Shown here: positions 56,772 to 61,530 of the stretch, in pieces
Layout of the letters: every line of letters begins with the position of its first letter
Numbering within the stretch: the stretch's first letter is position 1
Origin: a virus
IMG/VR virus record: IMGVR_UViG_3300012953_000013
Span: 1-64,000 of that record
DNA: 64,000 nt
Strand: one strand, 5' to 3'
Translations under genes and position numbers: made by a program
Notes under the pieces: generated by a model
What the model was told of the DNA's origin: nothing
Seen by the model: only the letters and a program-made list of their open reading frames with translations
Databases searched by the model: none

Positions 56772-57029
56772 TTATTCAAACATCACGGATGTTTCAAAAT
56801 ATGCCATGGCAGAAATATCGTCCCAGTTATTTTCTTTTTGTAGATCTTCAAATAGTTCTTGAAACTCCGAAGGGTCCAATCTACAAATTTCCATAGTTCT
56901 TTCTTTGATTTTTTCTTTTGCTTCCATGAGCTGTTGAGGTCCCAAAAGAGAAAATCTACTAATAACGTATCTAAACATTCTGACTTTTTCTGATTCTATT
57001 TCGTGCATCGACATAATGACCTCCATCAC
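56772..57029 (-). CDS. Hypothetical protein
   Basis: 85 aa. Confidence 0.65.
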   Translation of the reverse strand: MMEVIMSMHEIESEKVRMFRYVISRFSLLGPQQLMEAKEKIKERTMEICRLDPSEFQELFEDLQKENNWDDISAMAYFETSVMFE

Positions 57030-57050
57030 GAAACTAAATATATCTCTAAG

Positions 57051-57704
57051 CTATTTCTTTCTCAAGTTCTTCTTTCGGATCTTCTTCCGCTTTTTAATCT
57101 CTTGAGCTGACAGATGAGATTTTTTCTTCACTCGGCCAATCGAGGGTTTATCTAAACCATCCATTTCTCTTTGCTTTCTAGCAGAACGCAAGATCTGTTT
57201 TCTAATCTTCCTCTTATACATATCAGCTGAAAACTTGTTGGCCCTGTCAAAAATCGTCTTGCCATCTAAATGATCAGCTTCGTGCTGAACCGCTAAAGAA
57301 AGTGGCGGCTCTAGATCTATTTTTTTTCTTTCTCCAGAAATATTATCGTATTCCAAAGTTATATTTTCGTGTCTTGTAACGCTTAGTTTCGCTAAAGGAA
57401 CAGAAAGACAGGCTTCTTGCCATTTCCACTCTCCTTCTTCATTACTAAACTCAGGATTTGCTATAACCCAAAAATTTGAGTCTCCTATCTCAGCATCAGG
57501 ATTAACAGCGTCAAACCTAGATGTGTCGATAACAAAAACTCTCTTGGAGATATTAACCTGGGGAGCTGCTAAGCCAGCACCGGGGATAATCTTAAGTGTA
57601 TCTATTAAGTCTGTAGAAATCCACTTGATCTCTTCAAGATCCGCTGTTTCGGCTTTTTTACTCAAGCATTTAGCCGGCCACTGTTTAATAGTTCTAAAAG
57701 GCAT
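57051..57704 (-). CDS. def: Peptide deformylase with basic C-terminal extension
   Basis: GAGLAAPQV, EACLSVP, QHEADHLDG. Confidence 0.95.
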   Translation of the reverse strand: MPFRTIKQWPAKCLSKKAETADLEEIKWISTDLIDTLKIIPGAGLAAPQVNISKRVFVIDTSRFDAVNPDAEIGDSNFWVIANPEFSNEEGEWKWQEACLSVPLAKLSVTRHENITLEYDNISGERKKIDLEPPLSLAVQHEADHLDGKTIFDRANKFSADMYKRKIRKQILRSARKQREMDGLDKPSIGRVKKKSHLSAQEIKKRKKIRKKNLRKK

Positions 57705-57874
57705 TTACTCCTCCTCGTTATCTTTTTTTGTAACTAATGGAAAGGCGCAAAGCGCGCCGTTTAAAACTGCTAAAGCTGATAGCTCCATGCTGTCAAGAGC
57801 TATACCGAAAAATAAAAGACAACAGTTTATTCCTATTGCAAAATATAATATGGATTCTGGTACTTTAAAATTCA

Positions 57875-58117
57875 TCAATGAAAATCTTCATCATCAGGCT
57901 CTTCAAACTCTATCGTAGAATTAATTGCTCCGCAAGCGCCGCACTGATAATTATTAATCTCTGTGTTAGATTCGAATATTAAATTAGCGTCACTAACCAT
58001 AGAGACAAACTGAATCCACTCTTCAAAAGTAAATTTAAGAACCAGCGATTCTCCAACTGGAAAGATGACCAAATTATTCTGGCCATCTATTACTATCCCG
58101 TTTTCTAAACTGATCAT
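57875..58117 (-). CDS. Hypothetical protein with CxxC
   Basis: YQCGACG. Confidence 0.65.
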   Translation of the reverse strand: MISLENGIVIDGQNNLVIFPVGESLVLKFTFEEWIQFVSMVSDANLIFESNTEINNYQCGACGAINSTIEFEEPDDEDFH

Positions 58118-58120
58118 ACT

Positions 58121-58507
58121 CTACTCTGGATTATCGGTTTGAGTTTTGGGAGCTGTTTTCGTTGTTCTTTTTTTACGAGGTTTTCTTTTTGAGATATCAG
58201 TTTTTTGAGCTGTACTTGTTTTTTTACGACGAGTATATTTTCTTTTTGGTTTTACAGAAGGTTTTTCTTCTGGGATTTCTTCAACTTCTATCTTTTCTAA
58301 AATCTTAGAAGGAGTTGGCTCTAAAGTAATTTGAGCTTTTTCTTCACGGACAAACAAGTGTTCCACCTCTGACTCTAGAGGTGGAACACAGTCTCCAGTA
58401 TTGATTCTAGAGAGAAGTTGCTCGTAGCTTCTAATATCCCTACTTTTAAAGTAGGAAACTAAATCTAACTTACGTATTTTTACATAGTCTTTCCAAGCAA
58501 GAGCCAT
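58121..58507 (-). CDS. Protein with Lys/Arg/Thr-rich C-terminal tail
   Basis: 128 aa; AGGAG RBS. Confidence 0.7.
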   Translation of the reverse strand: MALAWKDYVKIRKLDLVSYFKSRDIRSYEQLLSRINTGDCVPPLESEVEHLFVREEKAQITLEPTPSKILEKIEVEEIPEEKPSVKPKRKYTRRKKTSTAQKTDISKRKPRKKRTTKTAPKTQTDNPE

Positions 58508-58541
58508 TTTTTCTCCTAAGCATAATCAAAAAATCATACTA

Positions 58542-58817
58542 TTAAATATCAATATATTCATGAATGATCTCTTGTACACATGACTGAAATCTCGGATCGT
58601 TAGCCAGCTTTTGAGCATCTGGCCCACCGTATTCTTCTGTGATTGGCTTTGCAATCTTTTGCATAGCTCTCAAGAAAATATTTCTAGCGGTAGAATGATT
58701 CATATTGTGACCATCTTCTGTCATTTTTTCAGCAATTTCTCGATATCCTAAGCACCCGTCTTGGCTACTAACAGTTGCATATCCAGTTTCTACTTTATGT
58801 CCTTTTGGCATACTCAT
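58542..58817 (-). CDS. Sigma region-4.2-like helix-turn-helix protein
   Basis: LGYREIAEKMT...MNHSTARNIFLRAMQKIA aligns to TLEEVG...VTRERIRQIE.KALRKL; TAATG overlap with the sigma stop; GAGAGGTG RBS. Confidence 0.65.
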   Translation of the reverse strand: MSMPKGHKVETGYATVSSQDGCLGYREIAEKMTEDGHNMNHSTARNIFLRAMQKIAKPITEEYGGPDAQKLANDPRFQSCVQEIIHEYIDI

Positions 58818-59578
58818 TACAAACACCTCTCGTTTAGTTGTTTAAGTTCTTTTTTAGTGATTGGAAAATTTTCATGATCGTTTGGTTCTTCTTCAATTCC
58901 AAAGCGAAGCCGCACGACCAATTCTTCTCTCTTAGAAAGAGAGCCTAAAGACTGTCTAATTAGACTTGCAAGTTCTTCTCTTTCAAGCTTAGACTCCATA
59001 GACTCGCTTTCGTCTGGAATGATTTCTGAAATTCGGCGTCCGCCATCATCATTCCATGAGACTGTTGCATCGATAGAAATTGCAGGCCGAGCGCTTTTAA
59101 TAATAGAGTCCAAAGTAGACTTCTTTACGCCCAAAATATCTGCAACTTCTTCTGGAGTCGGCTCAACTCCAAACTCTTCTTCGTACTCTTCTTTGACGAC
59201 TTTCATCTTCCACAACAACCCGCGAGCGTGAGTTGGAAGTTTGATCTGTCCAGTGTTTGAAGAAACATGCTTTCGAAGTGCTTGCTTAATCCACCAAACT
59301 GCATAGGTGCTAAACTTAAAGCCCTTTCGCCAATCGAAACGATCAACAGCCTTAATAAGACCTAAACTAGACTCTTGGATAAGGTCTTCTAGTTTGCAAC
59401 CAGTGTTTGTATAGTTTTTTGCTAGGCTGATTGCTAGCCGAAGATTGGCTTCAATCATGTGATTTCTAGCAGCTAAGTCGCCCTTTTCAATTCTTTGAGC
59501 TAGCTCAACTTCTTGCGATTTAGTAAGAAGATCTCTCTTTCCTACTTCTTTGAAAAATGAAGATAATTCATTACTCAT
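58817..59578 (-). CDS. Sigma70-family factor (RpoD/RpoS-like regions 1.2-4.1), lacking region 4.2
   Basis: LLTKSQE, NLRLAISLAK, DLIQE..LGLIKAVDRFD..KGFKFSTYAVWWIKQA, LSKRE..VVRLRFGI, then stop without HTH. Confidence 0.9.
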   Translation of the reverse strand: MSNELSSFFKEVGKRDLLTKSQEVELAQRIEKGDLAARNHMIEANLRLAISLAKNYTNTGCKLEDLIQESSLGLIKAVDRFDWRKGFKFSTYAVWWIKQALRKHVSSNTGQIKLPTHARGLLWKMKVVKEEYEEEFGVEPTPEEVADILGVKKSTLDSIIKSARPAISIDATVSWNDDGGRRISEIIPDESESMESKLEREELASLIRQSLGSLSKREELVVRLRFGIEEEPNDHENFPITKKELKQLNERCL

Positions 59579-59620
59579 ATTTTTTCCTTGTTTTAAATGT
59601 TTAAATTGTTAATTGTTTAT

Positions 59621-59878
59621 TTATCTGCGGGTGTTCTTGCGAGGTCGCCTCCCTTCCATGAATTTTTGATGAGCTTCCTTACGAGCTCTGCGAATATTCA
59701 GCTCTCGCTGAAGATAACACAGTTCTGTTTCTAGCTTAACCCGCTTTTTATGAGAAAACTTGTTCCCATTCAGCAGCTTTCGCAGAGTGTTGTACTGGCG
59801 ATCCAGATCACCATCAGAAATACGACCGAGCTCCCTCTTTTCAGACTCCAAAGTGCACCTCCTATTCAAATTATGCAC
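59621..59878 (-). CDS. Basic helical hypothetical protein
   Basis: 85 aa; first gene of the sigma operon. Confidence 0.7.
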   Translation of the reverse strand: MHNLNRRCTLESEKRELGRISDGDLDRQYNTLRKLLNGNKFSHKKRVKLETELCYLQRELNIRRARKEAHQKFMEGRRPRKNTRR

Positions 59879-59902
59879 GTCTAAACCTCACCTTGTATAG
59901 AT

Positions 59903-59931
59903 ATTATACCACATCTAGACAACTTTTTCAC
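59903..59931 (-). promoter_or_regulatory. GTGAAA-N17-TATAAT promoter of the sigma operon
   Basis: cGTGAAAaagttgtctagatgtggTATAAT. Confidence 0.75.
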
Positions 59932-59955
59932 GAAACATCCGCATTTTTTTTATTT

Positions 59956-61530
59956 TTATTCGTCATATACTATAGAGCAACCTACTGACAGCAGAGAATT
60001 AGCTGCTGCAACAGAGTTTTCTAAAGCGCATCTCACTACTTTCTTTGGATCTATAATCCCAAGCTCTAGTAAATTTCCAAATTTTTTCTCTCTAGCATCA
60101 TATCCAACAAAATCTTCTTCTTCTAAAAGCTTGTGGATTATCAAATCAGGAGACTCTCCACAATTAACGCTAATGTTCCACGCAGGTGCTTTAATAGCCT
60201 GAAGAAGCATATTATATCCAGCATAAAAATCAGTGTCCCAAGATTTATTAGATCTTACTTTTGAAGATGCTCTCAAGAGAGCTAAGCCGCCTCCAGGAAG
60301 GATCCCTTCTTCGACAGCTGCTTGAGTGGCATGAAGGGCGTCTTCCACTCTATCTTTTTTCTCTTTTAGCTCAGTTTCAGTAGACCCGCCGACTCTTAAA
60401 ACTGCTACAGCTCCCGCAAGGTTCGATAACCTTCTTCTCAAAACATCTGTTTCATTAGAGTCTAGACTTGAAGTTTGCAACATTTTTTTAATAGCAGAAA
60501 CCCTTGATTCTATTTCATCACTCGAATCAGCAGTCACAAAAATTGATTCATGTCTACTGATTATAACTTTTTTAACTCTTCCCAATTCTTCAATTTTAGT
60601 TGGAAAATCTTCGGCTCCAGAATAAGATTTTGTGTTGAACATCAGCGATAAATCGCTCATGGTATCTACCCTAGCGTTTCCAAACTCGGGGCTTCTAATT
60701 ACACAGACTTTTAAAACTCCCTTAATTGAGTTTAAAACCAGGGCTTTCAATACTTCACCCTCAACTTCATCTGCAACTATCACCAACGGTTTACCATCTC
60801 TAGCGCAAACTTCCAAAATAGGAAGAAGATCTCCCATTGAGCTTATGACTTGGTTTGCTAAAAGAACTACAGGGTTATCTAGCTCACAAACTAATCTGTC
60901 ACTATTAGTAACAAAATACGGTGATACAAACCCCCTGTTTAACTTAAGTCCATCTACGACATCCAAGGAAGTCATAAAGCCTTTTGCTTCTTCCACTGTT
61001 ATGATGCCATCTTTTCCAACAGCATTCATAGCCCTACAAAGAAACTCGCCGATCTCTCTGTCTCCATTCGCAGAAATAGTTCCTACATTTATTATATCTT
61101 CGTCTCCCTTAACAGGACGGGACATTTTATCTAGCTTGTTTAAGACTTCATTTTTTGCTGCTATCATCCCTTCACGGACTTTTACAGCGTTGTGGCCAGA
61201 TGTGAGAAGCTTCATCCCTTCTTGGAAAAGAGCTTGAGATAAAACTGTTGCTGTGGTTGTGCCATCTCCAGCGACTTCAGCTGTTCTAGACGCAGCTTCT
61301 TTAATAAGTTGAACTCCTAAATTCTTATAAGAGTCTTTAAGGTTAATCGACCTGGCAACTGTTACACCATCTTTAGTTAAAATAGGAGGGCCATCAGCAG
61401 ATTCAATAATAACATTTTGCCCAGATGGACCCATTGTGGTTTTTACTGCGTTTGCTAGTAAATTTACACCCTCTAGTAATTCTTCTCTAGCATCGTGAGA
61501 AAAAACTAAAACCCTATTTTCATCTTTCAT
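59956..61530 (-). CDS. groEL: Chaperonin GroEL (no GGM tail)
   Basis: TMGPSGQNV, TKDGVTVA, AGDGTTTATVL, RVEDALHAT.AAVEEGILPGGG, GIIDPKKV. Confidence 0.95.
   Translation of the reverse strand: MKDENRVLVFSHDAREELLEGVNLLANAVKTTMGPSGQNVIIESADGPPILTKDGVTVARSINLKDSYKNLGVQLIKEAASRTAEVAGDGTTTATVLSQALFQEGMKLLTSGHNAVKVREGMIAAKNEVLNKLDKMSRPVKGDEDIINVGTISANGDREIGEFLCRAMNAVGKDGIITVEEAKGFMTSLDVVDGLKLNRGFVSPYFVTNSDRLVCELDNPVVLLANQVISSMGDLLPILEVCARDGKPLVIVADEVEGEVLKALVLNSIKGVLKVCVIRSPEFGNARVDTMSDLSLMFNTKSYSGAEDFPTKIEELGRVKKVIISRHESIFVTADSSDEIESRVSAIKKMLQTSSLDSNETDVLRRRLSNLAGAVAVLRVGGSTETELKEKKDRVEDALHATQAAVEEGILPGGGLALLRASSKVRSNKSWDTDFYAGYNMLLQAIKAPAWNISVNCGESPDLIIHKLLEEEDFVGYDAREKKFGNLLELGIIDPKKVVRCALENSVAAANSLLSVGCSIVYDE

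Follow-up and report, generated by a model that had tools for sequence, protein, structure and literature searches.

A candidate two-polypeptide sigma factor in uncultured T4-like jumbo phages: an RpoD-like sigma truncated inside domain 4 and its conserved helix-turn-helix partner

We analyzed a 64,000-nucleotide stretch of viral DNA (positions 1 to 64,000 of the IMG/VR record IMGVR_UViG_3300012953_000013; hereafter the window), which carries two adjacent genes, one for an RpoD-like sigma factor that ends in the middle of domain 4 and one for a small protein with a predicted helix-turn-helix (HTH), termed here the partner. The same arrangement recurs in 76 distinct pairs from independent metagenome assemblies and is far beyond chance. 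We propose, with a probability of about 0.65, that the two proteins would share a sigma domain 4 made of two polypeptides, in which the HTH of the partner completes the domain on the 4.1 helices kept by the sigma factor. We regard the comparative evidence as solid and the structural evidence as suggestive. Sigma domain 4 is a single folding unit: it binds the beta flap, recognizes the -35 element and is the site on which most activators and anti-sigma factors act.

The truncated sigma gene and its conserved partner

The complete record is 184,866 bp long, about 71% complete, and a genome search finds a single sigma gene in it. PHROGs identifies the product as an RNA polymerase sigma factor (phrog_351, E 3.6e-55). 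Pfam recognizes region 1.2 (PF00140, Sigma70_r1_2; residues 6-36, E 9.7e-10, above cut-off), region 2, which scores 74.1 bits in the genome search, and region 3 (Table 1). The match to Sigma70_r4 (PF04545) is partial, covering residues 211-229 with 20.1 bits for a cut-off of 24.1, and no complete region 4, with 4.1 and the 4.2 HTH in one polypeptide, is found in this sigma. A previous reading of the DNA by a model, made without database searches (the sequence-only reading), had described intact regions 1.2, 2, 3 and 4.1 followed by a stop, and this description holds, 4.1 being all that Pfam finds of region 4. Residues L214, R217, E218, R223, R225, F226 and G227 of 4.1 are invariant among 52 relatives, as expected if 4.1 still forms half of the sigma4 fold.

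The protein stops at a TAA exactly 25 residues past RLRFGI. These residues had been called unrelated; the length was right, but P239, I240 and T241 of the F-P-I-T segment are at least 90% conserved in the 52 relatives, so that the tail is not a random extension. It is reduced to 5-15 residues in some family members and ranges from 5 to 55 residues family-wide. The sigma of the relative L086 (positions 2467-2658) has a tail of 55 residues after RFG, with an ISKEARA-type repeat in tandem, and its gene reaches 23 nt into that of the partner. In the window, the last codons of the tail contain the ribosome-binding site of the partner, a GAGG Shine-Dalgarno (SD) motif at 58826-58829, 8-11 nt upstream of the ATG. 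The TAATG overlap with its own ribosome-binding site and the TAA that closes the partner frame nine codons before its ATG had both been noticed from the letters and were found again in our analysis.

Loci were gathered from IMG/VR starting either from the partner (n=29) or from the sigma (n=80), to which contigs encoding chosen sigma relatives were added; the 76 pairs are those left after removal of duplicates. Sigma functions are carried by two separate, co-inherited genes in 76/76 of them, and in every pair the sigma ends 5-55 residues past RFG[ILMV]. In 73 pairs, the distance from the sigma stop to the partner start is -23 to +38 nt, and most of these show overlaps or gaps of at most 4 nt. 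All three frame relations occur among these adjacent pairs (36/23/14), and an SD-like motif lies in the last sigma codons, upstream of the partner, in 72/73. In the three distant pairs (L029, L032 and L033), the partner is separated from the sigma by one or two small genes and found about 0.5 kb downstream (up to 537 nt), yet the sigmas are truncated likewise. The variable junctions and the inserted genes of this 76-pair comparison rule out an assembly error as well as a conserved programmed frameshift. The claim that these are two real genes is thus borne out, and the proposed check of their conservation as two genes in related phages gave a positive answer.

The presence of the partner follows the truncation of the sigma. 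It was detected (E <= 1e-21) at 71/71 sigma-first loci with at least 44% identity, and at 0/9 loci with at most 34% identity; 8 of these 9 have a normal region 4.2 (TLEEIG…RERIRQI…LRKLR) and the ninth is cut by the contig end. At least 120 relatives of the sigma, down to 53% identity among the matches listed, measure 249-271 aa, except one 201-aa fragment; they come from many samples and from contigs of up to 293 kb.

No fused sigma-partner form was found in an exhaustive phmmer scan of 1.84 billion representative proteins, nor in a profile search restricted to longer proteins. The only "longer" match, a 438-aa aldehyde dehydrogenase on a 2-kb contig, was judged spurious, and a 2384-aa repeat protein from the phmmer scan was discarded as a low-complexity false positive. 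In 14 distinct relatives (L002, L047, L082, L106, L115, L117, L069, L079, L084, L101, L060, L071, L109 and L031), the two genes share a reading frame, with one to three stops and 0-10 sense codons between them; all these stops are TAA. Low-level stop read-through could give a fused product in these relatives.

The phmmer scan delineated a partner family of 214 representative clusters, nearly all of 85-105 aa. Since no relative was found among 185,579 prokaryote species genomes, the partner belongs to a phage-only, stand-alone family. The prokaryote genomes searched contain no relative of the sigma above 35% identity either, and these searches consequently give no clue to the host. By its Gp23-type major capsid gene, the record groups with the T4-like "group 2" jumbo phages; these phages are devoid of an RNA polymerase of their own and encode sigma factors (PMC7824862). 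The sigma/partner module is widespread in uncultured marine T4-like jumbo phages.

Relation of the partner to sigma domain 4

The alignment of 65 partner members reveals three conserved blocks: an N-terminal MxMPKGxK…GYAT, a central Y-R-x-I-A-x-x-M-T-x-x-G-x-K-M-N-H-S-T-A-R-N-x-x-L-x-A-M-x-K-I-A, and a C-terminal D-P-x-F-Q, in which P75, F77 and Q78 are at least 90% conserved. The most invariant part, M-N-H-S-T-A-R-N, is the start of the second HTH helix.

We compared the partner with sigma4 profiles built from 47 domains of five bacterial genomes and with other HTH profiles, using hhalign. The best of the four HTH profiles is sigma4 of the extracytoplasmic function (ECF) type, with a score of about 30 and a probability of 72-88%, to be compared with 16-18 (6-7%) for GerE, 13-14 (<2%) for sigma4 of groups 1-3, 12-13 (about 1%) for TetR_N and 8-16 for reversed or column-shuffled controls. 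In the best register, helix 3 is matched by YREIAEKMT, followed by a turn longer by five residues, and the recognition helix by MNHSTARNIFLRAMQKIA; R45 of the partner, which is near-invariant, then aligns with an arginine that we take to be R588 of E. coli sigma70. A hidden Markov model of region 4.2 alone leaves the partner at noise (median -3.0 versus -4.1 for other open reading frames, ORFs), and with a thin hhalign profile made from six canonical phage sigmas the probability is below 1%. A feature search of the ESM Atlas returned, at rank 22 (0.87), a lead to a viral cluster in which 19% of the members have Sigma70_r4. A match to sigma region 3.0 (hhalign E 1.3e-3, probability 18%) was rejected as a similarity of amphipathic helices. 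By its sequence, the partner is thus an HTH protein that appears most like ECF sigma4, and no more. Either its HTH has diverged far after a gene fission, or a different HTH has been recruited.

The partner alone was modeled by AlphaFold2 (AF2) with the family alignment. It is predicted confidently as a helical domain containing an HTH (mean predicted local distance difference test, pLDDT, 84.3), with four helices whose limits are given in Table 1. Residues 1-20 reach a pLDDT of only 55-57, and less than 50 in the fusion model described below; this N-terminus looks like a docking peptide for some target. Foldseek found nothing significant for the partner alone in the PDB (best E 2.2) and no sigma4. 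With VIA-align, Z-scores were 4.2 or less and the rows of low root-mean-square deviation were mostly DNA-binding domains of the LuxR/NarL/GerE and LysR types; DosR, RcsB, NarL and GerE gave Z 3.3-4.0 and 1.7-2.9 Å over 45-49 residues.

A different picture came from a model of both pieces in one chain. We used for this the relative L002 (59% identical to the window in the sigma, 65% in the partner) and submitted to AF2 its 157-aa in-frame read-through, with the TAA read as a residue, in the order sigma C-terminus, linker, partner; the alignment comprised 14 paired in-frame rows together with sigma-only and partner-only rows. The model has a mean pLDDT of 75 and a predicted template modeling score (pTM) of 0.65, with 86-92 for the 4.1 helices and 88-95 for the partner core; the sigma tail is low to middling and the partner N-terminus low. 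Among 48,161 PDB representatives, its best VIA-align matches are complete sigma domain 4 structures that span both pieces: AlgU sigma4 (Z 9.1, 1.6 Å, 75 residues, model range 1-128) and region 4 of E. coli sigmaE on -35 DNA (Z 8.6, 1.5 Å, 69/69 residues, model range 8-129), and further WhiG, SigH, SigL, SigC, SigD, SigK, sigmaB, sigma28, Taq sigmaA and sigma32. LuxR-type domains are interleaved among them and also use the last helix of the partner, whose C-terminal helices align like the last helix of LuxR/NarL-type domains. The top Foldseek rows are sigma region 4 as well (7kuf, 8d5v, 3t72 and 1ku7_A, the latter with a template modeling score of 0.76 by target). In this L002 model, obtained without decoy control, the partner HTH superposes on helices 3-4 of sigma4 and is packed on 4.1. 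Given the 1.5 Å fit over a whole sigma4, we infer that the partner HTH may dock on 4.1 with the geometry of a canonical sigma4. The sequence-only reading had spoken of a region-4.2-like HTH: the model does put the partner in the place of 4.2, whereas a similarity to region 4.2 of groups 1-3 is not seen above noise.

Several points weigh against a partner that would complete domain 4. Neither Pfam nor PHROGs assigns it to a family above threshold; Sigma70_r4_2 is the commonest match below threshold, in only 6/65 partner members (best E 0.0056), and Sigma70_r4 appears likewise in 2/65. Profiles of the whole partner or of its core returned no sigma from the PDB sequences at E <= 10, only chance helical matches. 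ECF sigma4 against TetR_N also scores 30.5 with hhalign, so that a score of about 30 indicates an HTH and not specifically a sigma4. The likeness to group 1-3 region 4.2 expected under simple gene fission is at noise level. As for the fusion model, its Foldseek E-values (1.3 to 5) are not significant, and it is a single chain of a relative, with only 14 paired rows and neither predicted aligned error nor decoy control; AlphaFold may have rebuilt a learned sigma4 fold from likeness to solved sigma4 structures. Finally, the co-occurrence of the two genes comes from one clade and thus reflects in part phylogenetic inertia. A mutual-information analysis of sigma 4.1 versus the partner, covering the 76 pairs, gave no interpretable signal.

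A proposed domain 4 shared by two proteins and competing explanations

In the reading that we favor, sigma and partner would be made from the same mRNA, since the only good promoter-like site nearby lies upstream of the small ORF that precedes the sigma gene and none lies between the two genes. Translational coupling of the partner to the sigma would then provide similar amounts of both. The sigma would bring regions 1.2, 2 and 3 and the two helices of region 4.1, on which the HTH of the 91-aa partner would pack. The composite domain 4 would bind the tip of the beta flap and present the second HTH helix of the partner to the -35 region, with a specificity set by the conserved N-H-S-T-A-R-N at the start of this helix. 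If true, a natural and widespread system would show that sigma domain 4 can be completed in trans; it would offer a ready handle for swapping -35 specificity, for instance in split-sigma circuits for synthetic biology, and it would be a new tactic by which T4-like jumbo phages redirect the host RNA polymerase.

One would also wonder whether the split is functional in itself. The HTH subunit could be a dissociable -35 reader, its disordered N-terminal peptide docking on RNA polymerase, a clamp or another factor, and the holoenzyme could toggle between -35-dependent and extended -10-only initiation or swap readers. We regard this as unlikely; if true, such toggling or reader exchange would be a control of promoter specificity not described for RpoD-like sigmas. 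A temporal switch between the sigma alone and the sigma with its HTH, as suggested by the sequence-only reading, is disfavored: the genes are coupled and no promoter-like site separates them, so both proteins should be made together.

The partner could also be a separate, co-expressed HTH factor or co-activator that binds DNA alone, somewhat like T4 MotA, beside a sigma that is blind to the -35 element and uses extended -10 promoters through its regions 2 and 3. This explanation, which we find improbable, would suit a partner predicted to fold alone as a self-contained helical HTH domain, which comes nearest in structure, though weakly, to DNA-binding domains of the LuxR/NarL/GerE and LysR types and which has no significant sequence relation to sigma4; the TGn extended -10 elements of the GTGAAA promoters described below and the three pairs with other genes between sigma and partner would suit it too. 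However, 4.1 retains all its canonical core residues, although it would be devoid of a fold partner, the partner is strictly associated one-to-one with truncated sigmas and absent beside full-length ones, and the fusion model gives a full sigma4 at 1.5-1.6 Å. That the partner would not read DNA at all but act as a regulator seems to us quite unlikely. It would be in this case an anti-sigma factor or appropriator bound to 4.1 or to domain 4 of the host sigma, or a tether acting through its N-terminal peptide as T4 gp33 does with the sliding clamp. T4-like phages indeed use small proteins directed at sigma4, such as AsiA and gp33 (PMC7824862), and the N-terminal 20 residues of the partner are highly conserved yet predicted to be disordered, which is typical of a docking peptide. 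On the other hand, the most invariant block of the partner is found where the DNA-contacting residues of an HTH lie, and the model puts the second HTH helix at the place of the sigma4 recognition helix, exposed as in the sigmaE-DNA complexes.

The last explanation to be weighed is that a single full-length sigma is really made, the stop being an assembly or sequencing frameshift or being bypassed by programmed frameshifting or read-through. Occasional read-through is conceivable in the 14 relatives with in-frame genes. Nevertheless, this reading is already contradicted by the comparative data, namely the three frame relations, the variable gaps with or without intervening genes, the SD motif and conserved MSMPKG start proper to the partner, the same architecture across many independent assemblies and the failure of both large searches to find a fused homologue; moreover, a fusion would put an insertion of about 45 residues inside domain 4. 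We thus consider it extremely improbable, and we retain the two-polypeptide domain 4 as our preferred reading.

A parallel can be drawn with SigO-RsoA from Bacillus subtilis and Sig7-Sig8 from Tn916, pairs of small co-expressed proteins from neighboring genes, both of which associate with RNA polymerase (bioRxiv 10.64898/2026.10.01.756105). As in these systems, promoter recognition would be shared by two proteins of adjacent genes. SigO-RsoA had been invoked from the outset, and it stands as a fair functional analogy, but the split point differs. SigO-RsoA and Sig7-Sig8 correspond to an ECF-like factor split between domains 2 and 4, with one whole domain per subunit, whereas here the cut falls inside domain 4 of an RpoD-like sigma that keeps regions 1.2 to 4.1, and only the HTH half and extra helices would come from the partner. 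No sequence relation to RsoA, SigO or Sig7/8 was seen, no search having been aimed at one. All known split sigmas (T4 gp55/gp33, SPO1 gp33/gp34, SigO-RsoA and Tn916 Sig7-Sig8) are divided between domains 2 and 4 (bioRxiv 10.64898/2026.10.01.756105). The cut described here lies instead between regions 4.1 and 4.2, and what differs from the known systems is precisely this almost complete RpoD-like sigma cut inside domain 4.

Among phages, T4 gp55 with gp33, in late transcription, and SPO1 gp33/gp34 likewise distribute sigma function over two proteins, one of which replaces domain 4 on the beta flap (PMC7824862), and the Gp23 capsid indicates a T4-like lineage in our case also. In T4, a minimal domain-2 sigma, gp55, works with gp33, which does not read DNA and makes the link to the sliding clamp; in contrast, the sigma described here is nearly full length and its partner is predicted to be the DNA-reading HTH of a composite domain 4. 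During sigma appropriation by T4, AsiA remodels domain 4 of sigma70 and the -30 box is read by MotA. As predicted here, a separate small DNA-binding protein of the phage takes over recognition upstream of the -10 element and works with a sigma that no longer reads the -35 element through its own domain 4. T4 appropriation acts on an intact host sigma70 and needs two phage proteins, whereas in the present case the phage's own sigma is genetically devoid of 4.2, and the prediction is that one partner suffices for the canonical fold. Ordinary RpoD-like or group 2 sigmas of phages, like those of Synechococcus phage S-CBS1 and Microcystis phage MaAM05, belong to the same family over regions 1.2 to 4.1 (29-39% identity); their region 4.2 is complete and part of the same chain, and no partner gene lies downstream. 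The gene downstream of the sigma of Vibrio phage 2.275.O was considered as a partner homologue and rejected. A literature search retrieved no paper describing a sigma split inside domain 4; a survey of jumbo phages mentions RpoD-like sigmas in the T4-like "group 2" and no split (PMC7824862).

Promoter-like sites and neighboring genes

The sequence GTGAAA-N17-TATAAT defines a promoter class: the coding strand has 8 exact sites, where shuffles predict 0.1, and the opposite strand has 1; most sites have a TGn extended -10 element (TGTGGTATAAT). The site that precedes the small ORF, the sigma and the partner is the best one in 57000-60100, with 10/12 matches and the TG, and the scan of this interval detected no promoter-like site between the sigma and partner genes. 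The same GTGAAA motif is present upstream of the sigma in the relatives L001, L049, L058 and L073. A de novo k-mer search of upstream regions found only SD and TATAAT-like words. GTGAAA had been suggested as the -35 target of the partner. The class is real, but one of its sites drives the sigma operon itself and GTGAAA is identical to TTGACA at 4/6 positions, so that these sites are at least as likely to be early promoters for the host sigma as to be targets of the phage sigma and its partner. By analogy with Sig7-8 of Tn916, an autoregulation of the sigma operon is possible.

Table 1. Features of the sigma/partner locus and promoter-like sites; positions are those of the window unless stated otherwise.
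Feature	Position	Strand	Remarks
Partner gene	58542..58817	minus	91 aa, begins MSMPKGH; phage-only stand-alone family
Partner C-terminal helices with DPRFQ motif	58554..58616	minus	helices 68-72 and 75-88; extra to canonical sigma4
Partner helix-turn-helix: YREIAEKMT, five-residue longer turn, MNHSTARNIFLRAMQKIA…	58629..58745	minus	predicted helices 25-34 and 41-63, pLDDT 88-97
Partner N-terminal peptide MSMPKGxK…GYAT	58758..58817	minus	highly conserved, predicted disordered
TAATG stop/start overlap	58815..58819	minus	partner ATG inside TAATG
Truncated RpoD-like sigma factor, regions 1.2 to 4.1	58817..59578	minus	253 aa; Pfam and PHROG matches
Acidic linker and F-P-I-T tail helix of sigma	58820..58891	minus	25 aa; conserved in close relatives
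Sigma region 4.1 (…LSKREELVVRLRFGI), first half of domain 4	58892..58948	minus	PF04545 positions 2-18/50
Sigma region 3	59000..59209	minus	PF04539, residues 124-193, E 7.3e-9, 36.1 bits vs cut-off 25.3
Sigma region 2 (core binding, -10 recognition)	59255..59458	minus	PF04542, residues 41-108, E 4.2e-20, above cut-off
Small conserved ORF directly upstream of sigma	59621..59878	minus	85 aa; 70-79 aa gene called there in relatives
Promoter-like GTGAAA-17 nt-TATAAT with TG extended -10	59903..59931	minus	upstream of small ORF, sigma and partner
GTGAAA-17 nt-TATAAT sites (5' G)	63691, 59931, 41427, 25459, 20378, 15176, 12425; also 99443 of the record	minus

The surroundings of the sigma comprise, in order, a 5'-3' exonuclease, GroEL, the small ORF, the sigma, the partner, small ORFs and a peptide deformylase. 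The 85-aa ORF, which lies behind the same promoter as the sigma, is probably co-transcribed with it; the module could include this ORF as a third component or be regulated by its product. A Pfam search gave no match for it. In the distant relatives L032 and L033, the small ORF upstream of the sigma has a common C-[YF]-x-Q-R-E motif.

On the 3' side of the partner, a 128-aa gene (58121-58507, minus strand) without Pfam match is syntenic in relatives. Its C-terminal half is very basic, and its N-terminal motif …SY-E-x-L-x-x-R…G-x-x-PP-x-E-x-E is common to L001, L002, L032 and L033. A perfect 13-bp stem with 7 G-C pairs and a 6-nt loop, followed by a T-rich tail, is found inside this ORF at 58358-58389 (minus strand); this hairpin may be a terminator-like or regulatory element within the coding sequence.

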